Made by a program: the position numbers and the translations under genes. Below are positions 25,233-51,924 of a stretch of 64,000 nucleotides of DNA, one piece after another. Positions within the stretch are counted from its first letter, which is position 1, and every line of letters begins with the position of its first letter. The notes below the pieces were generated by a model. It was not told where the DNA came from, ran no database searches, and saw nothing but the letters and a program-made list of their open reading frames with translations. Source of the stretch: a virus (lineage: Duplodnaviria; Caudoviricetes); IMG/VR virus record IMGVR_UViG_3300037067_026718, positions 32,001 to 96,000 of that record, one strand, 5' to 3'.

Positions 25233-25267
25233 AAAAGACAAAGCCCTTCGTGGAAAAACAAAGGGCT
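25233..25267 (-). terminator. intrinsic terminator of the RNAP operon
   Basis: AGCCCTTTG-loop-CGAAGGGCT followed by TTGTCTTTT. Confidence 0.55.
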
Positions 25268-25315
25268 CAGTCTCGACGCAAGAAGTTTATAACTTATTTT
25301 GCTGATATTTTCTAT

Positions 25316-26044
25316 CTAAACCCGGGGGATCCTTCGTAGATAGTTCATCGTATTTTTGCGCAGCAATGCCGAGGCCAGGGCTCCTGCTGCGGCACCAATG
25401 AGAGTAGTCCTTGCGGATAGCAAATAGTTTCTGTAAGTGGCCAATGCGGACATGCGGACTGGGCTGTTCTCGGGGACCCCGGCCCTGTTCCAGGCTTCTA
25501 CTTCCTGCCTGTACAAAGGAGTGTTTTCTGGATCCGAGAACATGGAAGATATCATCGACCGGTACTGGCCTCGTCTTTTCGTAAGAGATCCCGATTCCTT
25601 CCAGTCGCTGTAATGCCCCAGTTCATGGCGCATGACTTCATCAACCACTGGAGGCTTCACGGATATGGCTGGCTTGCCTCCCTTGACAGGAGGTTCAACA
25701 AAGAAACCGTGCCCTGGTCTTGTGGAGTTCAAAGCTTTGCGGTAGAGCATCCGCTTCAGAACATTCACGCCTGGCTGCTTGAGCCATTTGTTTATCTCTT
25801 CTTTGTTGGAAAGTACGCTGATATCTTCCGGGAATGATGTAACATCGAATTTCTTCGCTTTTCCAAATTCTCGTTCCACTTTCGACAACGCTACCAATGA
25901 GATAATCGTGTTGGCGAGCATTCCAGCCATGGATCCAGCTACTGCTCCTCCGAATATTTCCCTGCCTGGAACAGGGCCACTCGACCATCCCGCACGCTTC
26001 TCGAGCTCTATCCTGGCTGCAAGCTTGATGATGTGGTGGTTCAT
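25316..26044 (-). CDS. HEXXH zincin-like metalloprotease with a KxA leader and 2 hydrophobic helices
   Basis: MRHELGH plus downstream E (QEVEAW); leader IKLAA..EKRAG; TGATG coupling to the RNAP stop. Confidence 0.7.
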   Translation of the reverse strand: MNHHIIKLAARIELEKRAGWSSGPVPGREIFGGAVAGSMAGMLANTIISLVALSKVEREFGKAKKFDVTSFPEDISVLSNKEEINKWLKQPGVNVLKRMLYRKALNSTRPGHGFFVEPPVKGGKPAISVKPPVVDEVMRHELGHYSDWKESGSLTKRRGQYRSMISSMFSDPENTPLYRQEVEAWNRAGVPENSPVRMSALATYRNYLLSARTTLIGAAAGALASALLRKNTMNYLRRIPRV

Positions 26045-29000
26045 CAGTACTCCCCTGTTCTCCAGAGATCTCTTCCGAAGTCGATGCCTTGCAGGAACGG
26101 AGTAACTGGCTTTACTCCTTTTGAAGGACTCATGGCGCCCATGGCTGCGCTTTCCTGAAGCTGTCGAACCATGTCTCTACCCAGCATCTTGAGTGCCCAG
26201 TCAGGTTCGTTTTTTGCCAGATCGTAATCCATGCCGTCAAAGACCGGTTCGTACTTGATCAGCGCATCGCTGTCGCCTATATCCGCATTGATCGCCTGCA
26301 GCTCTTTGATGTCCTTGATGTCACCTGTCATCATGTCCTGGCTGCTGCCGGGATCCAAAACCTTGCCGTATCTCGTAAGGGCCGCCACTACTGTCTCTAT
26401 GTACCGGCGGTCTGGAGCCTTGCCGCCGTAGTTCCTTTCGATTTCGTCAACAAGGTAGTTCTGCATGGCCCTAAGGCCGTTGTATTTCATGACATCGTTG
26501 GGATCCGGAAGACCTTCATTGATCTGAAATCCGGCCTTCAGGCGATCGCCTACGGCAACCTTGAGCGGAGCATTGGTAGACGTGGTGAAAGACGTTCCGT
26601 CCTGCATGATGATTTCGTAGCCGCCGCCTCGCATCTTATTGATCTTGCCCACCACGCCGGCCTCAGGAGCAAGAGTGGCCTTCGCTCCGGCAGGGGCTCT
26701 TCCATTCAAGAGAGGCCAGATGGCATACAAGCCTTCTATTTTGTTGCTGGAAAGAGCGGAGCCTCCACCATGGAAAGCCTTCAACGTGAGCTGAACAGCC
26801 GGCTCGGTAAGGGTGTGGGCCGATATGACTCCTATGTCGGCGCCGACCTTCGGCTTCTCTCCATCCGGGAGTCTACCGAAATCCTTGGCGTAGAACCCGG
26901 TTTTTGCCACTGACGTCAAGGGAGATCTTACCATCACCGTCTTGATCTTGTTCGAACGGGCTGATGCTATCAGCTCTTCTGTTATGGGATCCCCGGCCAC
27001 GGCCAATGTTTTCCCCGCCGGGGTTACCAGGTCGAAAGCCAGGTATCTCTGAAGCACGGTGGGATGGTCAATGGGATACTCGATACCATCGGTAGGGTTT
27101 GCATCTCCGGGTGCCACTACGCTGCCCAGGGTAGACCTCAGAAGCTGCTTGCTGAAATAGCCGGGCTCCCTGACTTCAATGCTCTTCGAATGCAGAGCAG
27201 GCCGGTTGCCTTTCGATGCCACCCAGTAGTCCATGAAATCGAGTCCTTCTCCGTATCCGGTGCGGATCAGATGAGGGATAGGGCCGTCGAATCCGTTCAC
27301 CGTCATGGGAGAAAACTTGATCTGCATGACATTGGACCAATTCCCCTTGGCTCCGGAATCAGCAAGGACGGCAACTGCCGACCGAGGGTCTATTGAAGAC
27401 CTGAGCCTGGAGTAGACAGAGTCGGTTTCCTTCTGAGCCAAGAAGCCGCCAACGGACTTGGACATCTCTTCCTTGCTTATCGGCATGAAGTCCTTCAGGC
27501 TGAATGACAACCCAACCCTGGTGTTGAAGGCATTGCCCAGATCGGTGAGTTTCATCAAAGTGTTGACGTAATCCCCGGGAGCATGCTTACCCACAGCGTT
27601 GAGTATCTCGCCTATCTTCTTGTCGTTGTAGACTACATTGTAACCCTGTCTGAACTGCTCAGGAATGGCTTTGTTCACCAAAATACGACCGGCAGTGACA
27701 ACGACATTGCCTTTGTCTGTTTTGAGGGTTACTCCGTCATTGAGGGCTATTTCATTGGCTTCGTAAGCCTCTATGACTTCCCTCTCGGTGGTGTACTTCT
27801 TGTCGGGCCTCGGGTCTACGAAGTGAGTACCGTAATAGAGGCCGGCAATGGTGTCTTCCTCGGGACGCATGATCGTCTGGTCCAGCCCGGGCTTGAACAG
27901 GTTCTTGGATGGCAGCAGCTTTTCTCTGGCTTCCCTCACCGCTTCGTCGGAAACCGGGACGGAATAGCCCATTGCATCGCCATCGAAGTCGGCATTGAAG
28001 CCACGGGCTATCAAAGGACTGATCTCCATGGACTTGCCCGGTATCATCTTGGCCCAGAAAGCCATGACGTTGAACTTGTGGAGCTTGGGGTCCCTGGTGA
28101 TCATGACCGGACGATGTTTCATCTCGGCCTGCAGAGTTGCTTCAGCCAAAGCTTCCCTGTCTTCTATCATCCGCCTGGCTTCCAGAGGGGGGATGCCTTC
28201 CTTGGTCAGCCTGCGCATTACGAAAGAATGGAAGAGCGGCCATGCTGATTCTTCGGGAAGTCCGATCTCGTCTACGGACAAACCGGGATTGGGCCTGATG
28301 ACTGCACGGCCGCCAACCGACTGACGTTTGTCGAATATCTTATCCTGGAAATGCCCCCAGGAGGAAGACTCCCCCTTGAGATATTCGAGGATCCCGGTCC
28401 TCGGCTTGGCTCCGTACCCTATGCCCGTGGCCCCTATCTGGATCGCCTTTACGGCATCGTAGAGGTTCGTCCTCACTTCATCCAGTACGGAGGCCGGCAT
28501 GCTGCCCTGGCCGTCCTTGAGCGTCATGGCAAGCGTTCCTATGTCCTGGTACAGAGCTGTGAAATCACTGACCCTTATCCCGTTGTCTTTCGTGAGGTAC
28601 ACCGGTCTGAACTGCGGAGGAAGAACCGGAACCTTGGATATGACGTAAGCGTTCTCCGGTTTGATGCCGATGCGCTGCAGAGCGTTCAGGTACCGCAATT
28701 TCTTGACCATGGCATCCTTGGCAGTACCGGTGTGATTGGGGATCATCTCCTTCAAAGACTTGATGGAAGACTCTACGTCAATGGACGAAAGCATGGCTTT
28801 GAAAGCATGGCCACCGGTGATGGACTTGTCCCCCTTTACCCGGGGAGCCAGTACTCCGTCTTTGTACCCTACCCTGCCGGCGATGATGTCATCATAGGCG
28901 CCCTGCGTCAGGCCCAGGATGGCTCTGATAGCCTTTTCGTAAACCGGGTTGGGAAGAGGCTCCGCCAGGGAGATATGCCCCCATTTGTCTCCCTGCATGC

Positions 29001-32000
29001 CTCCAAGAAGCTTTTCATCGTAGAGGCCGCCTTCGTATGACTGCAACATCTCGTATTTACCGGGACGCCCGATCCGGGTGGCCATCGCTGGATTGGGTAT
29101 TTCGCCCGAACTCATCCTGTCGACTTCTCTGTCGGTGAGAGGCAAAAGCTGGTAATTGTCGCCTTGCTTGCGGACATCAATGCCGGCGCCTTTGAGTAGT
29201 GCCTGCAACTTTTTGAACGCAAAGGTCATCTGGGGCGATGGAATGTTGCTGCCTTCCTCAACGGCCCTCCAGAAATCATCGTTCTTCTCGCTCTTGGTGG
29301 TCGCTATCTCCCGCAGGTTGCTCGTGGCTCCATGGGCCAACAGAGCGTAGAATCCCAGGCCTCCCATCTTGGGTCCCTTAATGGGGCGCTGGCTGACTAT
29401 GTCGTAAGGATCGCTTCTGTTGCGAACATTGAAGTACGGCTCGGCCTCCTGCTTCTGCCGGGTAAAGTACTGATACCCGGTCATTACCTTGATGGGCCTG
29501 TCACCATCCTTGATGGGATTGCCGTCCTTGTCGTAGATCTCTTCCTGGTCTTCAAGACCGTATTCCTTCATTTTCTTGTATACGGCCTCCGGAGAGCTCC
29601 CCTTCAGGTTGAAAAGCTCCACAATGAAAGGTATACCGGTGTGGGCGGCTATCTTCGAAGCTGCGGCCTCGATTACCTGGCCGGTGTTGTTCCTTGAGGT
29701 GACGGCGGCCGGGTTCTGAAGAATGTCGAACGGCTGACCACTTTTGTCATGAGGCATTTCATCGTCGGGAAGGATCGCAGATACGACGCCCTTCGCCTGA
29801 TGACGATTGGAATTGCCAGTCCAGCATGCCTTCCCGTTGCGACGGACATACATCACATGGTTGGGAACAGTGCAGCAATACACCAGGCCGTCGTAATCAA
29901 CCAGTTTTTCCTCCTGGATGTGCTGTGACTTTGTATGGCCATGGTTGACCATGGGCTCAGTTTTCTTCCTGATAACAGAAACCCTGTATCGATCGGCATG
30001 GGCTTCATTGTCATCCCTAAGGCACGGAGTTACATTGGCAGCCATCCCGGCTTTCAATGCTATTTCCTGAACGTCATCAGCCAAGCGCTTACTCGTAGTG
30101 GAGTAACTCACACATGAAAAACTGGAGCCGTCGCAAGAAAGCAGTGCATCCAAAAGAATATTCATCTGCCTCTGCGACAACTCCATGAACTCCCTGGGGA
30201 CATACTTGTCGTTGGCGTGTCCGAGTACCGATAGATACTCATTGAGCTGCCTTGAGGATATGATGATTTTGCCTTCCCTGGGATTGTACGGCCACTTCAT
30301 TCTATCAAGGCATGCTGTGATTCTGTGGTAGACGTAACCACCATACGAATTCTTTGTTGTTTTATTCTTATTGATAGTTACGTAATATCCATCTTTCGAG
30401 AAATGGCCATCAGCTATGTAATACCCCAGGAATTCCAGCCAGTCATCCATGGCTACTTCAGGAAGCCCATGGGGGCTGAAGCCATGATGACGGCCATCCA
30501 CAGTCAGCAGGCAAAACTCTGATGCTTCCTTACCTATCCAAGTTCCATTCTTCTTGTACTGGACTCGTCGGCCCATAATATCCTGAGCCTGATGCAAGGC
30601 GAATGATTGAGCTCTCCGCGTTTTGACCAGCATGTTGTGATTGAGAGTCGTCAGCAAGTCGATCTGCTGAGACCGGATGCCATACATTTTTCCGGTGTGC
30701 CAATAGGAGAACACAGCCTCTGGATGCTGGTATTCCACAATTCCGGTATCCTGGTTGAGCGTGCATACCTGCTCATTAACGGTGAGATCAGAAACCGGGA
30801 TCCAACCCCTCTGGGTAAGGTATTCGTGGTCATCTGAAAGACACAGCTTATCCCCTGTCTTTACCGACCGCTCCGACCGCACGAAAATCTTGATCCCGGT
30901 GGGAGTACGGACTATTCTTTCGACGACGCCCGGGTCGCTGGCTTCCCAGACCTTGTCATCCCTGATCAGTTGCTGCTTCATTACCTGGCTCACATTGCCT
31001 GCCAGGATATCCTCCTGGGTCAAGCTTTTGGGGGTGAGCTTGAGGATGATAGGGTCACCGGTGTTCAACACGGTGCCTTCTTTGACAACTCCGTCATCAT
31101 CTATGTTGTCGAGCTGCATGGCCCGGTACTCTTTGGGATAGAGGGCCTTGAACCTGTTCTTATTGAAAACGTCATGCTTCCTGGAGCTGGCTTCCACCTG
31201 GTCTACGTGGATGGCTTTCATCTTCTCGGCAGCGCTCTCGGATATCAGCAGGCCGTCCATGAAGTTCCAGCCCTTGTATGGAAGAAAGGCCACTCTGAGA
31301 TTGCGCCCCATAGCCAGCATGCCGTTCCTGATGAAACTGTTGGTGGCGACTGCCTGCCCCTTCTTTACTATTTCACCCGCCTTTACAACGGGTATTTCAT
31401 GGATGACATTGCCTCCGTTGAGAGGGTAGTTTGTGTAAAGCTCTATGTCTTCGGTATCGCCGGTCTTGATGTCGCGCAGGGTGATGGAGTCCTTCTTCAC
31501 CTTCACGACTTCGCAATCGCCCATGTAAGAAGGAACGCGCCGAGAGAATCGGTTGCCGAACTCTTGTTCCGCGGTGAAGACGGATCCATCCGCGTTTTTG
31601 TGAACCCCGGCCAATACCAAGGGGTTTTCCGGCTCTGCAAGCATGAGAGCATGTGTGCTTTGCTTGACGGACATAGTGCTTCTTGTAGGAATGTTGTTGG
31701 GAAGGAATGGGATCAAAAGGCTTGCCCAGTCAAAAGCATGGTGGGGGGAGGCTATGACGTAATCGATCTTCGAGTATGGAACCTCAACTATCTCGCCGTG
31801 ATGCAATGCCTTTACCTTGGCCTTGTTGGGAAGGTACACCCCGGTTTCGCGCATGCTGTACTCACCAGGAATGGCGGTGTACTTGTCGTATATCTCCCGG
31901 GGGGTAACCGCCTTTGTTCCGGATTGCTTGCCCGTGGTGAAATCGAGAACGGAAGCCTTGAGCTCCCTCCCCACCTTCCGGGCGCCGGACGACAGATGCA

Positions 32001-33222
32001 TGTTGACACCAACTCGGTCAGTGGTCGGCGTGAAGATGGGATCGATGAACCCCATGGAGCTGTCATTCAGCTCTCTCATGCCTTCCGTGATGGCATAGGA
32101 GGAGCCCACACCGCCTTCGCCCATCTGAGTGACCTCAGTGGCATCAGAGAGGATCCCTATTGGATTTATCTGTTCGGGGTTGTAGACGACATCAGCCTGA
32201 ACGAACTTGCTGCTCATCAGCTTCCGGATCTCAGAAAGTGGCCTGGCCAGAATGTCTTTCTCGTCATACTGGTTGCTGTCCACCCTGTAGGCCAGCTTGT
32301 TCTTTATCTTGTTTGCCTGGTTCTCGATGCCGTAAAGGATGAGATCGTTGTATCCATAGATGTCCTGGAAATGCAGATCATCCCTGTTGTCAGGCTTCAC
32401 TGTGCCGGCGCTGACGTCCAGCATCTTTCGGGTGGCATCCATCAAAGCATGGCGGTCTGCAGCCTTGTATTCCTTGCCCAGAGTTACTTTGGACACCCAT
32501 GGGTCAAGAACGGTGGTTTCAAAAGCAGCCTTGAGCTGATCGGCCTTCTCGTTCGAATTTCTTGCTGTTCCTGTGTAGCTGAGCATCGTGCTGTACAAAC
32601 GCTCAAGCACGGAGCTATGGGTAGAAGGAGAGCGGAAGTTGGCCCTGTAGATCTGCTCACCCCATTGTTTCTGTATCTGCTCATCGGGAACGCCCAGTAT
32701 CCTCAGTACGGAATAAGCCGGAAAAGCCTTTCCTCCTACATCAAACCTGATTCTCATGGTCTCGGGATCGTAGTTGATCTTGATGTTCTGCCGTGTCTTG
32801 GTATTGATGAAAGCCTGCACGCCATCAGCCTGTTTGGTAACGTATATCCCCGGGGAAAGCCGCAACTGCTTCTTGACAGATACTTCGGACCCTTCCACAA
32901 CGAAAGTCCCCCTGGCTGTCGGGAAAGGCAGTCTGAACAGGATTTTGCCGGCGCTTCTCTTCTTCTCATTACCGCGCTCGTCGGTCATGACAATGTCGGC
33001 CCTTATCGGTATGGAATAGCTTGAGTCTCTTTCTCGGGCCGCTCTCTCGAGCGCAGGGTTGACCAGTTTGTCGGGAAGGTCGAACTTGATGTTCTCAATT
33101 CGTATTCCCCGCAACTTTCCCTGGTAAGAAAGGATCTGGGGCAGTCTTTCCCGGAGGCTCGAAAGCAGAGTGACGTAGTCTCGGTAGACATCTATTCGAT
33201 GCAGATTTTCATCAATACGCAT
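26044..33222 (-). CDS. rpoBC: single-chain fused DNA-directed RNA polymerase beta-beta' (intein-containing)
   Basis: Beta motifs GTFVVEG..QLRLSPG, EQINP..GEGG, LIPFL, MGRNLRVAF, GDKL/SNRHQAKG, NP..TSR.N.GQ; beta' motifs GHISL, VPVLPPQFRP, RDPKLH, NADFDGD (27976-27996), SGAKG, bridge helix and trigger loop QLTLKAFHGGG. Confidence 0.96.
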   Translation of the reverse strand: MRIDENLHRIDVYRDYVTLLSSLRERLPQILSYQGKLRGIRIENIKFDLPDKLVNPALERAARERDSSYSIPIRADIVMTDERGNEKKRSAGKILFRLPFPTARGTFVVEGSEVSVKKQLRLSPGIYVTKQADGVQAFINTKTRQNIKINYDPETMRIRFDVGGKAFPAYSVLRILGVPDEQIQKQWGEQIYRANFRSPSTHSSVLERLYSTMLSYTGTARNSNEKADQLKAAFETTVLDPWVSKVTLGKEYKAADRHALMDATRKMLDVSAGTVKPDNRDDLHFQDIYGYNDLILYGIENQANKIKNKLAYRVDSNQYDEKDILARPLSEIRKLMSSKFVQADVVYNPEQINPIGILSDATEVTQMGEGGVGSSYAITEGMRELNDSSMGFIDPIFTPTTDRVGVNMHLSSGARKVGRELKASVLDFTTGKQSGTKAVTPREIYDKYTAIPGEYSMRETGVYLPNKAKVKALHHGEIVEVPYSKIDYVIASPHHAFDWASLLIPFLPNNIPTRSTMSVKQSTHALMLAEPENPLVLAGVHKNADGSVFTAEQEFGNRFSRRVPSYMGDCEVVKVKKDSITLRDIKTGDTEDIELYTNYPLNGGNVIHEIPVVKAGEIVKKGQAVATNSFIRNGMLAMGRNLRVAFLPYKGWNFMDGLLISESAAEKMKAIHVDQVEASSRKHDVFNKNRFKALYPKEYRAMQLDNIDDDGVVKEGTVLNTGDPIILKLTPKSLTQEDILAGNVSQVMKQQLIRDDKVWEASDPGVVERIVRTPTGIKIFVRSERSVKTGDKLCLSDDHEYLTQRGWIPVSDLTVNEQVCTLNQDTGIVEYQHPEAVFSYWHTGKMYGIRSQQIDLLTTLNHNMLVKTRRAQSFALHQAQDIMGRRVQYKKNGTWIGKEASEFCLLTVDGRHHGFSPHGLPEVAMDDWLEFLGYYIADGHFSKDGYYVTINKNKTTKNSYGGYVYHRITACLDRMKWPYNPREGKIIISSRQLNEYLSVLGHANDKYVPREFMELSQRQMNILLDALLSCDGSSFSCVSYSTTSKRLADDVQEIALKAGMAANVTPCLRDDNEAHADRYRVSVIRKKTEPMVNHGHTKSQHIQEEKLVDYDGLVYCCTVPNHVMYVRRNGKACWTGNSNRHQAKGVVSAILPDDEMPHDKSGQPFDILQNPAAVTSRNNTGQVIEAAASKIAAHTGIPFIVELFNLKGSSPEAVYKKMKEYGLEDQEEIYDKDGNPIKDGDRPIKVMTGYQYFTRQKQEAEPYFNVRNRSDPYDIVSQRPIKGPKMGGLGFYALLAHGATSNLREIATTKSEKNDDFWRAVEEGSNIPSPQMTFAFKKLQALLKGAGIDVRKQGDNYQLLPLTDREVDRMSSGEIPNPAMATRIGRPGKYEMLQSYEGGLYDEKLLGGMQGDKWGHISLAEPLPNPVYEKAIRAILGLTQGAYDDIIAGRVGYKDGVLAPRVKGDKSITGGHAFKAMLSSIDVESSIKSLKEMIPNHTGTAKDAMVKKLRYLNALQRIGIKPENAYVISKVPVLPPQFRPVYLTKDNGIRVSDFTALYQDIGTLAMTLKDGQGSMPASVLDEVRTNLYDAVKAIQIGATGIGYGAKPRTGILEYLKGESSSWGHFQDKIFDKRQSVGGRAVIRPNPGLSVDEIGLPEESAWPLFHSFVMRRLTKEGIPPLEARRMIEDREALAEATLQAEMKHRPVMITRDPKLHKFNVMAFWAKMIPGKSMEISPLIARGFNADFDGDAMGYSVPVSDEAVREAREKLLPSKNLFKPGLDQTIMRPEEDTIAGLYYGTHFVDPRPDKKYTTEREVIEAYEANEIALNDGVTLKTDKGNVVVTAGRILVNKAIPEQFRQGYNVVYNDKKIGEILNAVGKHAPGDYVNTLMKLTDLGNAFNTRVGLSFSLKDFMPISKEEMSKSVGGFLAQKETDSVYSRLRSSIDPRSAVAVLADSGAKGNWSNVMQIKFSPMTVNGFDGPIPHLIRTGYGEGLDFMDYWVASKGNRPALHSKSIEVREPGYFSKQLLRSTLGSVVAPGDANPTDGIEYPIDHPTVLQRYLAFDLVTPAGKTLAVAGDPITEELIASARSNKIKTVMVRSPLTSVAKTGFYAKDFGRLPDGEKPKVGADIGVISAHTLTEPAVQLTLKAFHGGGSALSSNKIEGLYAIWPLLNGRAPAGAKATLAPEAGVVGKINKMRGGGYEIIMQDGTSFTTSTNAPLKVAVGDRLKAGFQINEGLPDPNDVMKYNGLRAMQNYLVDEIERNYGGKAPDRRYIETVVAALTRYGKVLDPGSSQDMMTGDIKDIKELQAINADIGDSDALIKYEPVFDGMDYDLAKNEPDWALKMLGRDMVRQLQESAAMGAMSPSKGVKPVTPFLQGIDFGRDLWRTGEY
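29812..30843 (-). mobile_element. intein with LAGLIDADG homing endonuclease (344 aa) in the RNAP beta moiety
   Basis: C1 CLSDDHEYLT, block B TTLNH, LEFLGYYIADG and LLDALLSCDG, block F VYCCTVPNH, C-terminal WTGN/S; removal restores GDKL-SNRHQAKG. Confidence 0.93.
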
Positions 33223-33903: not shown

Positions 33904-33931
33904 ATTATACCCGAATACGGGTTCCACGCAA
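33904..33931 (-). promoter_or_regulatory. sigma-70-type promoter, 16-bp spacer
   Basis: TTGCGT-N16-TATAAT upstream of the papain-like/RNAP operon. Confidence 0.7.
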
Positions 33932-33982: not shown

Positions 33983-36487
33983 TTACTGGCCCAGGTTGGC
34001 CCAGAAGGACGCTACCTTCTCGACGTCGCCACCTGTGGCTGCCATGAGCTTGTTGTTGACCCTCTCGGCCACCTTCTCGAAGAACAGGGCTTCCTTGGCG
34101 GCAGCGATCTTCTCGAGCATGGGGTTGTGGTCCTGGGCTTCCAGAAGGGCTGCGAGCTTCTGAAGGGAAGCTTCCCTCTGGGAGAGGGCTCCACCGGCGA
34201 AACCGGCGCCACCGATTCCGAGGGCCGCGAGGAGGGCCGGAACCTTGAGGTTGCGTTTGCCACCGATGCCAGCGATACCCTTGCTGCCACCGATGCGGGA
34301 CATCAGCTCAGCGAGGGCCGGCTTCTGCTTGCCCTTCAGAAGGGGAAGAAGGGCGGCGAGGGGACTGGCCTTTGCCCAACCGGGCATGGCTCCATAGCCC
34401 TTGGCTGCCGCGGAACCGAGGCCCTTGGCTGCCGAACCGATGCCCTTGGCGGCTGTACCGAGAGCCTTCTTGTCGGTGTTGTAGATCCACTTGGCTGCAC
34501 CGGTGTTGGCGCCCATGATGGCCTTGAGGGCCTTCATGAGGCCGTTGTCGCTCTTGCCGCGACCAAGCAGGCTGGCGAGGTTGGGGGCTGCGCTTTTTTC
34601 CATCATCTCACTGATCTGAATGATGGCTGCGATCTTCTCGGACTTCGTCATTTCTGTTCCTTCCATCAGTGCTGCAATTTTCTGCAGGCTTGCCGTTCTG
34701 TCTCTGTTCAAGTAAGCCGCGGTACCCAAGCCACCCAGACCAAGGGCGGCTATGCCCGATTCTACTGGACGGTTACGCATGTAACCAAGGACGCTTTCTC
34801 CTCCTCTTCCGATTCCCCTCATGGCCTTCCCGGGGATTCCAGCGAGGTCTCCCAGAAGTTCACGGATAACCTCTCTGTTCTTTTTCCTTCTGGCTTCTTT
34901 CGCCAAGTCCACCTTGGAAAAAAGGCCTCCAAGCAATGTCTTGGGGAAAATCTTACGGTTGAGCCTGTAGTTACTCCTGAGAAAAGCGGCCTTGTTCATC
35001 GTATCATCCCTTTCCAACGAAGAGTTTTTCTTGATGGCGCTTCCTATGCCATACCCTGTTCCAACCAACCCTATGCCAGCAAGAGCCGCCGGCAGTCTGA
35101 GATCTCTCTGTGCGCCTACTCCCAGCAGCCCTCTGCGGCCCTTGAGCGACCGAAGTACTCCTTCGATACCGGCAGGCTGCAACTTCATCGCCAAGCTGCC
35201 AAGGCCTTGGTTGAAGCGCCTCCAAGGCATCAGGCGACCGAACATGATGGCCTGGGCGATGGCGTCGTGGTTGGTTGTTTTGGCCTTGATGGCACCGATG
35301 GCCTGACGAGTATTTTCTCCACCCTTACCAAGCCCCATATTGCCACCGAAGCTCTTCAAGGCGTTGATGAAATCTTTCCCTGAAGTAAGCGTGTCTGCAA
35401 AACCCTTGGGAAGAAGCCGCTGCACGAGTCTAGTATTCAGAAGTCTCATCCCAATATTCGATGCAAAACCGGCCTCTTTCAACATCGAGGCGGTCCTTTC
35501 GGGAAAGACATACGCTGGCCGTCTCTCGCGCCGGCGTGTATTGGCAAGTCCAAAGGCCAGTCCGCCAACTCCCAGACCTGCTGCGGCCAATGCAGCCGGA
35601 GTCATGAGATTCCTTCTGGCGCCGTAGCCCATGATGCCTTCGCTGCCTCCGAGCCTGTGAGCAATGCCGGTCAAGCCTCTGGGATTTGCAAAGGCGCCGA
35701 TGCCGAGGTTCTTCATGAGGTTGATGAACTTCAGGGGATTGATGCCCTTGGTTACCCCCATGTACGTGTTGATTGTCTTGAACAACTTGTAGAACTGTTC
35801 TGCAGTCATGCCGGACTGGGCTGCTGGAGCACTGGCAGCCGCCGGGGCAGCCGCCGCTACTGTTGCTCCTTTTCCACCAAAAAAGCGTTTGATCGCCGGC
35901 CAGACGGCATCCATCCGCCCAGCCTCTTTGATCAAGGCATGTCTGAGCGATGCCTTCTTGAACCTGCTGGGGGCCCAGGCGGCTGCCAGCGCAGCAGTCA
36001 AGTCTGGCGGTTTTTGGTGAAGCCTCTTTATAATATCATCCGAATTTGTAAGATCAAGACGAGGTGAATTTCTTCGACTTTTAATGGAATCGTAAGCTCG
36101 CTGAATCAAAGCTTCTCTATCAGCAGTTGCTGCTTTTCCACGCCAGCCACCAAAAAAGCGATTTAAGGCATCCATCCATCCGGCCTCTTTGACCAAAGCA
36201 AGTCTGAGCGATGCCGGCTTGAACTTGGGATCATCATTTACGGCAACCTGACTGACGGGCGGCGTGACAGGGGTATTGAGCGCAGCCATGAAAGAAGAAG
36301 CCGGTCCTCCCTTTCCGCCAGTGACGGAATTGGCAGCCTGTCTCCCTGCGGTCTGAAAGGTATTCAACGGAAACTTGTACTTGGGACCTGGGACACTTGA
36401 TATGGCATCAAGAGTCGGCTGAGCTGCCGAGCTCATTTTGGCCAGTTCCACCAACGCTGCCAATTTTCTGCGCTTCATACTGGTCAT
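33983..36487 (-). CDS. Gly/Ala/Lys-rich modular polyprotein with many KxA motifs (putative internal virion protein)
   Basis: 834 aa; repeated KEAG/KIAA/KLAA/KVAS motifs separating cationic amphipathic modules that end in Gly-rich hydrophobic helices. Confidence 0.75.
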   Translation of the reverse strand: MTSMKRRKLAALVELAKMSSAAQPTLDAISSVPGPKYKFPLNTFQTAGRQAANSVTGGKGGPASSFMAALNTPVTPPVSQVAVNDDPKFKPASLRLALVKEAGWMDALNRFFGGWRGKAATADREALIQRAYDSIKSRRNSPRLDLTNSDDIIKRLHQKPPDLTAALAAAWAPSRFKKASLRHALIKEAGRMDAVWPAIKRFFGGKGATVAAAAPAAASAPAAQSGMTAEQFYKLFKTINTYMGVTKGINPLKFINLMKNLGIGAFANPRGLTGIAHRLGGSEGIMGYGARRNLMTPAALAAAGLGVGGLAFGLANTRRRERRPAYVFPERTASMLKEAGFASNIGMRLLNTRLVQRLLPKGFADTLTSGKDFINALKSFGGNMGLGKGGENTRQAIGAIKAKTTNHDAIAQAIMFGRLMPWRRFNQGLGSLAMKLQPAGIEGVLRSLKGRRGLLGVGAQRDLRLPAALAGIGLVGTGYGIGSAIKKNSSLERDDTMNKAAFLRSNYRLNRKIFPKTLLGGLFSKVDLAKEARRKKNREVIRELLGDLAGIPGKAMRGIGRGGESVLGYMRNRPVESGIAALGLGGLGTAAYLNRDRTASLQKIAALMEGTEMTKSEKIAAIIQISEMMEKSAAPNLASLLGRGKSDNGLMKALKAIMGANTGAAKWIYNTDKKALGTAAKGIGSAAKGLGSAAAKGYGAMPGWAKASPLAALLPLLKGKQKPALAELMSRIGGSKGIAGIGGKRNLKVPALLAALGIGGAGFAGGALSQREASLQKLAALLEAQDHNPMLEKIAAAKEALFFEKVAERVNNKLMAATGGDVEKVASFWANLGQ
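35874..36224. repeat. intragenic direct repeat (two copies, period 261 nt)
   Basis: ggcatccatcc..cc.gcctctttga.caa.gca.gtctgagcgatgcc..cttgaac at about 35874-35963 and 36147-36224. Confidence 0.75.
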
Positions 36488-36525: not shown

Positions 36526-36553
36526 ATTGTACCGCAAAACGCGAAGAACGCAA
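36526..36553 (-). promoter_or_regulatory. sigma-70-type promoter, 16-bp spacer
   Basis: TTGCGT-N16-TACAAT upstream of the polyprotein. Confidence 0.7.
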
Positions 36554-36602: not shown

Positions 36603-36633
36603 AAAAAAATAAAAAGGGGCGATGCCGCCCCTT
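36603..36633 (-). terminator. intrinsic terminator
   Basis: AAGGGGCG-GCAT-CGCCCCTT followed by TTTATTTTTTT. Confidence 0.8.
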
Positions 36634-36761
36634 CGTTTTTTACCACTTCAAGTATTTTCCAGTGGCTTTGCAGAAAGGCTGAAGGTGTCCCATCCCGCCT
36701 GCCTTCATTCCTTTCCCCGCCACGAGCAAGAAGATTATCTTGAAGACACGAAAAACTACCT

Positions 36762-49639: not shown

Positions 49640-49667
49640 ATTTTACTCGAAACCGTCATAAGCGCAA
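49640..49667 (-). promoter_or_regulatory. sigma-70-type promoter, 16-bp spacer
   Basis: TTGCGC-N16-TAAAAT, directly after a G/C hairpin (about 49670-49688). Confidence 0.65.
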
Positions 49668-50563: not shown

Positions 50564-50942
50564 GGGTGGAACTCCCTTCTTCATCCGTTTTCATGCGTTC
50601 TACAGTACCGGGGGCAGTTGATGCTTTCCTTGCTTTGTTTTTTGCTTCTGCTATTTCGATAGCCCTGTCCCTCAGGGGAATATGGTGGTTCTTGTTTGCA
50701 GGATCAAAGGCTAATTTCTGCTTGAAGGGTCGTAATTCTGTCAAGGCTTTGGTCATGGTTCTCATGTTTCTGGATTCATGTGCGGCTGTGATCCTGGCCA
50801 TCATCCTGTCGAGAGTACGATCGTCGGGGAAGTGGTACTTGGCCCCAAGATAAGAAATGGTTTTCAGCTTCTTGACCATGCGGGGTGATGCCGTAACAGT
50901 CAAGTAAGCTTCGTCCTGGCTAACAAGGGATCTTTTGGACAT
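50550..50942 (-). CDS. hypothetical basic protein
   Basis: 130-aa ORF, AAAGGA RBS. Confidence 0.6.
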   Translation of the reverse strand: MSKRSLVSQDEAYLTVTASPRMVKKLKTISYLGAKYHFPDDRTLDRMMARITAAHESRNMRTMTKALTELRPFKQKLAFDPANKNHHIPLRDRAIEIAEAKNKARKASTAPGTVERMKTDEEGSSTHGLE

Positions 50943-51924
50943 CTTCGTTCCTTTCTTTTATTTCTTCTTTTATCGGGTATAAATATAATGGACCAAGAAT
51001 CACCTTGGGCCTCATACAGAAGGAGAACATCATGATGGATCCTAGCCTGGAAGACACCGACTTCGGTTTTGATACCGAAGAAATAGAGGACTTCTGGGAC
51101 TCAGAAAGCTCAGAATCCCAGTAAGCGCCGCGTCTTTTGGGGGGGTCTTGTGCCGCAAGGCCCTCCCTCACCCTCGATTCGGCCTTGCCCAGGATCTGTC
51201 TGATTCTTTCTCTGGACAGATTGAGAACATGGCCTATCTCTCGTAAAGTGTGCCTGTGGCACTGCAGACCATGGCGCCGACAAAACACATCTTTTTCCCT
51301 GGCCGGAAGACCAGATACGATCGCCATGATTTTGTCCATCATGATCCCATCGGCTATCTCGTCTTCTCCGGACTGACATGAAACCACTTCATCGTTGTAT
51401 TCCTCGTACTGCAGACAGCTCACCGCGCTGTTGATCCTATTCATGTCGAGATTGAGGTCCGCTGCCAAGCCAAGGTAGTCTACATCCTCCATGGTTCTCT
51501 GCATGAGTTCAGCACTGAGCTGCCTGACAAAATCGATCTGGTAGAGAGTCCCGGGAGGAACATAAGCACAGGTGCTGGTAGTCCTGATGTACTTGTTGAT
51601 CCTCTGCTTTGCCCATTTTTTGGCGTACGTAGCAAACTTCGTGCCTCTGTCCGGGTCGAAACGGGACGCTGCTTCATAGTACCCGTCGATACCGCAGGAT
51701 ATGATGTCTTCAAAACAAATCGGAGGCTTGATGTAGTACTCCTGAGCGCAGGCGATGAAAAGGTATCTGAGATTGGCCATGACCAGTTTATTTTTAGCTT
51801 CAGCCACATCGTTGGGATTGTCTGAGGACTGAATGATGACTCCCAGCCGATGTTCTTCTTCCCTCGTTATGGGAACGGCTTCCGCAAGCATTCCTCTGTA
51901 ACTGTCAGGGATGAATGGCTTCAT
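50920..51924 (-). CDS. RNA polymerase sigma-70 family factor (RpoD/RpoS-like regions 1.2-4)
   Basis: ITREEE, KLVMANLR, RFDPDRGTKFATYA..W, LPAREK...TLREIG..LNLSRERIRQI. Confidence 0.93.
   Translation of the reverse strand: MKPFIPDSYRGMLAEAVPITREEEHRLGVIIQSSDNPNDVAEAKNKLVMANLRYLFIACAQEYYIKPPICFEDIISCGIDGYYEAASRFDPDRGTKFATYAKKWAKQRINKYIRTTSTCAYVPPGTLYQIDFVRQLSAELMQRTMEDVDYLGLAADLNLDMNRINSAVSCLQYEEYNDEVVSCQSGEDEIADGIMMDKIMAIVSGLPAREKDVFCRRHGLQCHRHTLREIGHVLNLSRERIRQILGKAESRVREGLAAQDPPKRRGAYWDSELSESQKSSISSVSKPKSVSSRLGSIMMFSFCMRPKVILGPLYLYPIKEEIKERNEDVQKIPC

Follow-up and report, generated by a model that had tools for sequence, protein, structure and literature searches.

Can an RNA polymerase (RNAP) of the bacterial type do without structural zinc? 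Its beta' subunit has two zinc sites, the N-terminal zinc ribbon and a second, C-terminal site, and both are regarded as near-universal among RNA polymerases of the cellular type. The question is raised by one gene in a 64,000-nt stretch of phage DNA (the window in what follows), which covers positions 32001–96000 of the 157,672-bp phage contig C3 (IMG/VR record IMGVR_UViG_3300037067_026718), a contig binned with a 4.85-Mb bacterial genome. In this gene beta and beta' are joined in a single chain, and the original prediction, made from the letters of the window, was that both beta' zinc sites have been eliminated from it. We consider it likely that the gene encodes an intact, probably active single-chain phage beta-beta' RNA polymerase which folds and works without structural zinc, and that the sites were lost in two steps. 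The relevant parts of the gene are given here in window coordinates:

26044..33222, minus strand: gene of the single-chain beta-beta' RNA polymerase, 2392 amino acids (aa), the largest gene (list of open reading frames (ORFs), translation, Pfam, phmmer and AlphaFold2 (AF2) model)
29812..30843, minus strand: LAGLIDADG intein of 344 aa, residues 794–1137, in the beta part (Pfam LAGLIDADG_3 and Intein_splicing)
28984..29016, minus strand: 11-residue linker E1403–K1413 (EKLLGGMQGDK) in the place of the ribbon (alignments; predicted local distance difference test (pLDDT) of the model 79–93)
27976..27996, minus strand: catalytic NADFDGD motif, intact, residues 1743–1749 (translation; columns N384–D390 of alignment A1 are nearly invariant)
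27100..27102, minus strand: A2041, opposite E. coli beta' C814, the first ligand of the second site; varies within the clade (alignments)
26881..26913, minus strand: S2104, Y2111 and D2114, opposite C888, C895 and C898 (alignments; model pLDDT 93–95)

The chain consists of a beta part (about residues 1–1350, with the intein inside) and a beta' part (about 1360–2392). Pfam finds Rpb2_3 and Rpb2_6, followed by Rpb1_1/2/3/5; among the fused upstream beta domains Rpb2_6 (E=2.9e-41) and Rpb2_3 (E=3.6e-6) are clear, and Rpb2_7 is weak. The identity to bacterial beta' is only about 25%, and phmmer matches the polymerase to solved bacterial beta' chains with E=3e-89. The double-psi beta-barrel is recognizable, with FNADFDGD at residues 1742–1749 and a match to RNA_pol_Rpb1_2 (E=5.5e-19). 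The intein is inserted between GDKL and SNRHQAKG and holds 10 of the 11 cysteines of the polymerase; the spliced protein (extein) has 2048 aa. The host rpoC is a separate gene on another contig (C2), and the phage contig carries no second polymerase of bacterial type. A megablast search of the polymerase gene against phage records gave no match, and even the closest relatives in culture share only about 25% identity. A 99%-identical copy is present on another 157-kb contig, and other relatives stand at 42–70% identity.

For the inspection of both sites, the beta' part was aligned with E. coli RpoC (NC_000913), the host RpoC and solved beta' chains. At the first site bacterial beta' shows GLFC, then 43 residues with the CxC...CxxC ribbon, then MGHIEL, whereas the phage protein has GGLYD, 11 residues and WGHISL (MAFFT and profile alignment). 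The corresponding segment, GGLYDEKLLGGMQGDKWGHISL, comprises residues 1398–1419 (window 28966–29031). In six bacterial beta' proteins the ribbon segment measures 43 residues and contains four cysteines; in the phage polymerase its 11 residues include neither cysteine nor histidine. Thus, about 32 residues, with counterparts of all four ribbon ligands (E. coli C70, C72, C85 and C88), are gone, and the whole ribbon is deleted at just the place where the original prediction had put the deletion. The N-terminal beta' zinc-binding domain has been called a feature common to all multisubunit RNAPs (PMC7618050). It lies at the RNA exit channel, where the put antiterminator RNA of HK022 docks on it; mutations that block put activity are confined to it (PMC9378689).

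Is this deletion peculiar to the phage? Relatives were gathered by a word-indexed search and by an exhaustive HMMER search. The listed family hits are mostly single chains of about 2000–2150 aa, longer where inteins are present, on contigs of up to about 195 kb. The query fits well into this family of fused, ribbon-less phage beta-beta' polymerases, which is marked by GGL(F/Y)D, 9–18 residues, W(G/S)HI and very few cysteines. In a profile alignment of 261 proteins, the ribbon segment is 9–18 residues long (mode 11) in about 250 phage-family members, and in none does it hold three or more cysteines. The same deletion is present in a cultured phage, Vibrio phage D181, in which the enzyme comes in several pieces. 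Because it is present in all of the roughly 250 family members sampled, the ribbon deletion is ancestral to the fused phage polymerases and not peculiar to this phage. Two further observations concern the architecture of the relatives. Many carry inteins or homing endonucleases at various positions of the gene, with lengths of up to 3966 aa. A group of about 1450–1480 aa (P0098–P0121) ends about 46% into the beta' part of the query, so that beta is fused to the N-terminal half of beta' only; this split point differs from that in bacteria and from that in phiKZ.

The second site is a structural zinc cluster in the C-terminal module of beta', into which another domain is inserted (PMC7824862). 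Here E. coli C814, C888, C895 and C898 stand opposite A2041, S2104, Y2111 and D2114, both in the phmmer matches to solved beta' chains and in MAFFT and hidden Markov model alignments. A2041 belongs to PGDANPT (residues 2038–2044, window 27091–27111), and the other three to RSPLTSVAKTGFYAKDFG (residues 2099–2116, window 26875–26928). All four cysteines are therefore replaced, at the positions originally given, and the alignments to the RpoC of E. coli and of the host bear out both losses. The background given with the original prediction on the ribbon and on the structural role of the second site also agrees with the literature (PMC9378689, PMC7824862). An alignment that places the ligands elsewhere is excluded, since there is no cysteine at all in residues 1360–2392, so that cysteine ligands have not been relocated.

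The history of the second site is a different one. Its four cysteines (Cys4) are kept in 201 of 244 sequences (6 bacterial), with 43 reading otherwise. In a FastTree phylogeny from 1023 columns, calculated with the second-site columns taken out and rooted on an outgroup, the query falls into a clade of 22 members (support 100) with x, S/T, Y and D at the four positions. This clade lies inside a group of 28 (support 96) without any Cys4 member. All 22 clade members show S/T, Y and D without exception, at overall identities of 42–70%; the surrounding motif VRSPLT(S/T)..A..G.YA(K/R)DFGR is almost invariant, while the counterpart of C814 is free to vary. At least seven state changes at this site are required by well-supported branches, and other lineages show different replacements, such as ASSA, DAPS, NDSA, IVPS and others. 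Loss of the second site thus appears, from the tree and the alignment, to be confined to some clades and to be recurrent. Two sequences from clades that are otherwise Cys4, P0136 and P0201, show nearly the same motif as the query clade, S..A..G.YA(K/R)D(F/Y)G.LPG; either the lineages converged on one solution or a gene segment was exchanged. The question whether homologues share the losses is therefore answered with yes for the ribbon and, for the second site, with yes in some clades only. The original prediction had taken both as one event in this protein, but one loss is ancestral and the other clade-limited and recurrent; by this comparison the losses are older and more widespread than a single sequence could reveal.

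Beyond the two sites, the protein is nearly devoid of thiols. With none in the beta' part, the whole extein contains a single cysteine, C570 in beta; at the cysteine frequency of the phage (1.7%) the chance of finding at most one in 2048 aa is about 3e-14. For comparison, E. coli beta and beta' together have 22. Among intein-free Cys4 relatives (n=100, about 2050 aa), 65 have exactly four cysteines and 18 have five; among intein-free relatives without the second site (n=22), 13 have none and nine have one. Because the Cys4 relatives mostly have four cysteines and those lacking the site none or one, the second-site loss in the query clade would seem to complete a purge that had already cleared every non-ligand thiol. 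Proteome-wide avoidance of cysteine by the phage was considered as well and rejected, as its overall frequency of 1.7% equals that of the host contig.

An AF2 model of the beta' part, built on an alignment of 46 sequences, has a mean pLDDT of 86 and a predicted template modelling (TM) score of 0.82. The three 10-residue blocks (model residues 31–60) that hold the ribbon-less segment (39–60) have pLDDT values of 79, 91 and 93, with the dip immediately ahead of the linker, and values of 92–95 are reached around A2041 and around residues 2099–2116. In a Foldseek search the model matched 8i23_D, the beta' of Clostridium thermocellum, with TM scores of 0.85/0.76, and the top 50 matches listed were all bacterial beta'. 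The model thus predicts that the beta' fold, with clamp, bridge helix/trigger-loop module and C-terminal module, is kept without either metal.

We propose the following course of events. Before the family diversified, a deletion of about 32 residues would have taken out the N-terminal ribbon, so that GGL(F/Y)D and W(G/S)HI came to be joined by an 11-residue linker. At a much later time, and in the line of descent of this phage, all four cysteines of the C-terminal zinc cluster would have been exchanged; three of the positions would have become fixed as Ser/Thr, Tyr and Asp, with the fourth left free to vary. Both steps would be part of the family-wide purge of cysteine. The S/T-Y-D triad may tie the two ends of the zinc-cluster module together by packing and hydrogen bonds in the metal's stead. 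Such an enzyme would need no zinc to fold and would have no thiols to oxidise. Because the docking domain at the exit channel is gone, the polymerase should differ from the host enzyme in pausing, in termination and in its spacer contacts; a ribbon-less enzyme should be indifferent to regulators that use the ribbon, and its response to hairpins may differ, in line with the altered response to terminators that was originally suggested. We infer the absence of zinc in the real protein from its sequence. Several points weigh against this reading as a whole. Activity of the enzyme is deduced from conservation, and the intein must splice out before the polymerase could act. A metal site made of His, Asp or Glu is formally possible, though none aligns to either site. 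The alignment used for AF2 included zinc-bearing relatives, which may account for part of the confidence at the second site. Finally, the count of losses depends on a FastTree topology and an outgroup root, and losses that look independent may be fewer events or segment exchange.

The alternatives also have to be judged from the surroundings of the polymerase, which are listed here (window coordinates):

25241..25268, minus strand: hairpin resembling an intrinsic terminator, 11-bp stem and T tract, closes the polymerase operon (sequence)
25316..26044, minus strand: downstream neighbour, 242 aa, cysteine-free, with an HELGH motif; overlaps the polymerase stop codon
33237..33875, minus strand: first gene of the operon, 212 aa, seven scattered cysteines, no CxxC ribbon
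33904..33931, minus strand: promoter-like TTGCGT-N16-TATAAT; the 212-aa gene at the head of the polymerase operon begins 29 nt downstream (sequence)
33983..36487, minus strand: upstream neighbour, 834 aa, cysteine-free, four glycine-zipper hydrophobic segments, repeated ..L(V/I)KEAG..
36526–36553, minus strand: near-identical promoter before the 834-aa gene (sequence)
36613–36634: canonical hairpin and T-tract terminator, the other boundary of the polymerase operon and the upstream gene
49640–49667, minus strand: third site, TTGCGY-N16-TAnAAT, before a 240-aa gene (pattern search)
50920..51924, minus strand: phage sigma-70-family factor, 334 aa, 10 cysteines (phrog_351, E=8e-31; Pfam Sigma70_r2 and Sigma70_r4)

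The sigma-70-family factor is the probable partner of the polymerase. In the whole 157-kb contig there are exactly three sites with the pattern TTGCGY-N16-TAnAAT, each of them intergenic and on the coding strand. A scan with the sigma-70 consensus missed the TTGCGT-N16-TATAAT sites, whose first hexamer matches at 3 of 6 positions; they were confirmed by eye and by pattern search. No match was found for the 834-aa protein in PHROG, Pfam or, by tblastn, the phage records; the 242-aa and 212-aa proteins and most large ORFs of the structural region likewise had no match in PHROG or Pfam. Supply of the lost ribbon in trans by the 212-aa protein was considered and rejected, given its scattered cysteines without CxxC pairs. 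Among ORFs of at least 200 aa, 7 of the 23 that lie in the morphogenesis region are cysteine-free, compared with none of the 47 outside it (Fisher p=2e-4); two more cysteine-free ORFs flank the polymerase. The morphogenesis region extends over C3 98934–139770 (window 66934 onward, mostly beyond the window), and its cysteine-free ORFs include the baseplate wedge and a 1180-aa protein.

Could the gene simply be a decaying, non-functional remnant, or the result an alignment artefact with the ligands shifted nearby? The low identity of about 25% to bacterial beta' might invite this thought, but we find it hardly credible: the 7.2-kb frame runs without interruption, conservation extends to catalytic and structural motifs alike, a 99%-identical copy exists on another contig with further relatives at 42–70%, the confident model superposes on bacterial beta', and a beta' part with zero cysteines offers no shifted ligands. 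If the enzyme is intact, its metal sites may have become dispensable once beta and beta' were fused and the phage had its own sigma factor, so that cluster and ribbon decayed neutrally. The many independent losses with varied replacement residues fit such relaxed constraint, as does the unconstrained first ligand position in the query clade. Most fused relatives nevertheless keep Cys4, so fusion alone does not make the site dispensable; the triad, invariant in the query clade and nearly repeated in unrelated clades (P0136, P0201), looks like a selected solution and not like drift; and neutral decay leaves the removal of all other cysteines unexplained. For these reasons we think neutral decay unlikely. 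Alternatively, an enzyme made in bulk during infection may have shed thiols and metal sites in order to free its folding from the zinc supply and the redox state of the host. An analogy exists in the zinc-free "C-minus" paralogues of bacterial ribosomal proteins. Here it speaks in favour that the purge hits every cysteine, with 65 of 100 Cys4 relatives having none beyond the ligands and those lacking the second site none or one, and that several separate clades have lost this site and carry different replacements. The rest of the proteome, including the sigma factor and the replication proteins, is not poor in cysteine, however, and a general intracellular pressure is not evident; we regard this explanation as possible, though tentative. 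It and relaxed constraint are not mutually exclusive reasons.

The remaining explanation takes up the idea of ejection, which presumes an enzyme packaged in the virion and is plausible by analogy: the loss of zinc and thiols would be an adaptation that lets the polymerase be stored outside the cell and unfold and refold on its way through the tail. In N4 the ejected gp50 (3500 aa), gp51 and gp52 have no cysteine, compared with 12 in the N4 DNA polymerase and eight in the primase, and the N4 virion RNAP is thought to unfold for ejection (PMC13434306). The virion beta'N of phiKZ, gp180, has an 11-residue linker for the ribbon, while the non-virion gp55 has C58/C60/C73/C76 (PMC7618050). In the phage itself, the concentration of cysteine-free ORFs in the morphogenesis region, the cysteine-free 834-aa and 242-aa proteins on either side of the polymerase, and the sharing of one promoter type, with only three sites in the genome, by the 834-aa gene and the polymerase operon point in the same direction. 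On the other hand, gp80 of the phiKZ virion enzyme is ejected and still keeps four cysteines like the second site (C327/C380/C398/C401), the non-virion RNAP of AR9 likewise lacks the ribbon (PMC7618050), and the second zinc site is kept by most family members (201 of the 244 sequences, of which six are bacterial). The sigma factor has 10 cysteines and the 212-aa product of the operon's first gene seven; the polymerase gene has genes of DNA polymerase and recombination as its neighbours, and some 35 kb separate it from those of baseplate and terminase; and as a single multisubunit polymerase is encoded, it would have to serve later transcription too. On balance we consider this adaptation to ejection rather unlikely. 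In its boldest form, the whole ribbon-less, nearly cysteine-free single-chain family would be virion cargo, packaged with cysteine-free membrane-active neighbours (in this phage the 834-aa and 242-aa proteins), threaded unfolded through the tail and refolding without zinc to start phage transcription, possibly first with the host sigma factor and later with that of the phage. We hold this broader scenario to be doubtful in like measure; if true, the enzyme would be the first ejected single-chain multisubunit polymerase of bacterial type, and depletion of cysteine and zinc would be a signature of ejected phage proteins.

How does the zinc-free single-chain enzyme compare with known phage polymerases? 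The closest in kind are the bacterial-like beta and beta' subunits known from metagenomic phages as mReC (Weinheimer & Aylward 2020, PMC7481178). They, too, are found in tailed phages, of about 150–190 kb, and are readily alignable with the cellular enzymes; the main text of that paper does not mention zinc, cysteine or subunit fusion. The mReC group is defined by a T4-type capsid (PF07068) and a PF03237 terminase, whereas the terminase of our phage matches PF05876 GpA_ATPase/phrog_675, and the PF07068 capsid was not found among the candidate structural proteins scanned, a subset of the ORFs. A further difference is the absence of the second zinc site from the query clade. The non-virion RNAP of AR9, a multisubunit phage enzyme, is reported to lack the N-terminal beta' zinc-binding domain (PMC7618050) and is one published precedent for a ribbon-less phage polymerase; it differs in consisting of several, very divergent polypeptides, in using gp226 in place of a sigma-70-family factor, and in its use of uracil-containing promoters read from the template strand. 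The main text of the AR9 structure paper makes no mention of zinc.

The virion RNAP of phiKZ (gp180/gp80/gp178/gp149) resembles our enzyme in the linker of gp180, which lies between IFG and FGYIHL, and in its low cysteine content (16 in 2614 aa). It differs in being made of four proteins, in being known to be packaged, in the second-site-like cysteines of gp80 and in having no sigma-70-type factor. In the phiKZ sequences gp180 (L014:17786-19258, minus strand) reads DGLFSVSIFG, 11 residues and FGYIHL, and gp55 (L012:7923-9185) shows CxC...CxxC; in the literature searched, this contrast in the ribbon was noted for the non-virion enzymes only. N4 gp50 shares the giant single chain and the lack of cysteine, also seen in its fellow ejection proteins (gp50, gp51 and gp52 with 3500, 644 and 150 aa, L011:14524-27524, minus strand). 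Its T7-like single-subunit fold is unrelated, however, and packaging and ejection are experimentally established for N4, whereas for our polymerase they are conjectural.

Among cultured phages, D181 is a ribbon-less family member whose beta'C piece has only the four zinc-ligand cysteines; it differs from our phage in that the second site is kept and the enzyme is split. The opposite state is found in Vibrio phage Va2, whose separate beta' (L018:3500-7078) keeps the ribbon (C59, C61, C74, C77) and has no second-site cysteine, which by its sequence appears to be an independent single loss in another lineage. Rhizobium phage RHph_Y65 beta' keeps both sites. None of the three shows both losses together; judged by these sequences, phage polymerases can lose either site while retaining the other. 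Literature searches turned up nothing relevant on virion proteomics or polymerase biochemistry of the cultured relatives (Carin-5, GN1, Va2 and RHph phages), and no account of a bacterial-type beta-beta' enzyme with neither site and practically no cysteine came up in the open-access text to which the search was limited.

With neither site, almost no cysteine and a predicted fold that superposes on bacterial beta' at a TM score of 0.85, the polymerase suggests that a bacterial-type enzyme can indeed be built without structural zinc. The approximately 250 ribbon-less relatives, together with the dozens that lost the second site, constitute natural comparison sets for the roles of the zinc sites in assembly, in regulation at the exit channel and in spacer contacts. 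The recurrent Ser/Thr-Tyr-Asp replacement could reveal how packing of side chains stands in for a metal cluster, and a thiol-free, metal-free single-chain polymerase could suit in vitro work. The parallels in N4, in phiKZ and in the morphogenesis region suggest cysteine depletion as a predictor of phage proteins that leave the cell in the virion.

One relative offers a look at a second locus. On the contig of P0010 (L016:7732-25153), whose polymerase is 46% identical, the polymerase gene stands in a run of 13 genes, 12 of them without cysteine, among them those for an M23 peptidase and a 1006-aa protein; the handful of further genes read on this contig are also poor in cysteine. Because it is cysteine-poor throughout, this locus fails to discriminate on the question of ejection. 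Its neighbouring genes have almost no detectable similarity to the query contig.

As to the phage as a whole, contig C3 carries genes for a large terminase (phrog_675/PF05876), a baseplate wedge protein (phrog_6), a DNA polymerase exonuclease subunit, RecE-like and Erf-like recombination proteins and the sigma-70-family factor, which has regions 2 and 4. The contig ends (C3 1–5721 versus 149067–157672, beyond the window) have about 4.7 kb in common at 98.4% identity with 3 gaps, followed by patches of 90–95%. An exact terminal repeat of 8.6 kb was considered and rejected, as only the 4.7 kb match at this level and the patches beyond have diverged. Since the ends share these 4.7 kb, C3 represents a complete phage unit of about 149 kb, and the overlap would fit a contig wrapping around via a strain variant as well as a long, imperfect terminal repeat.

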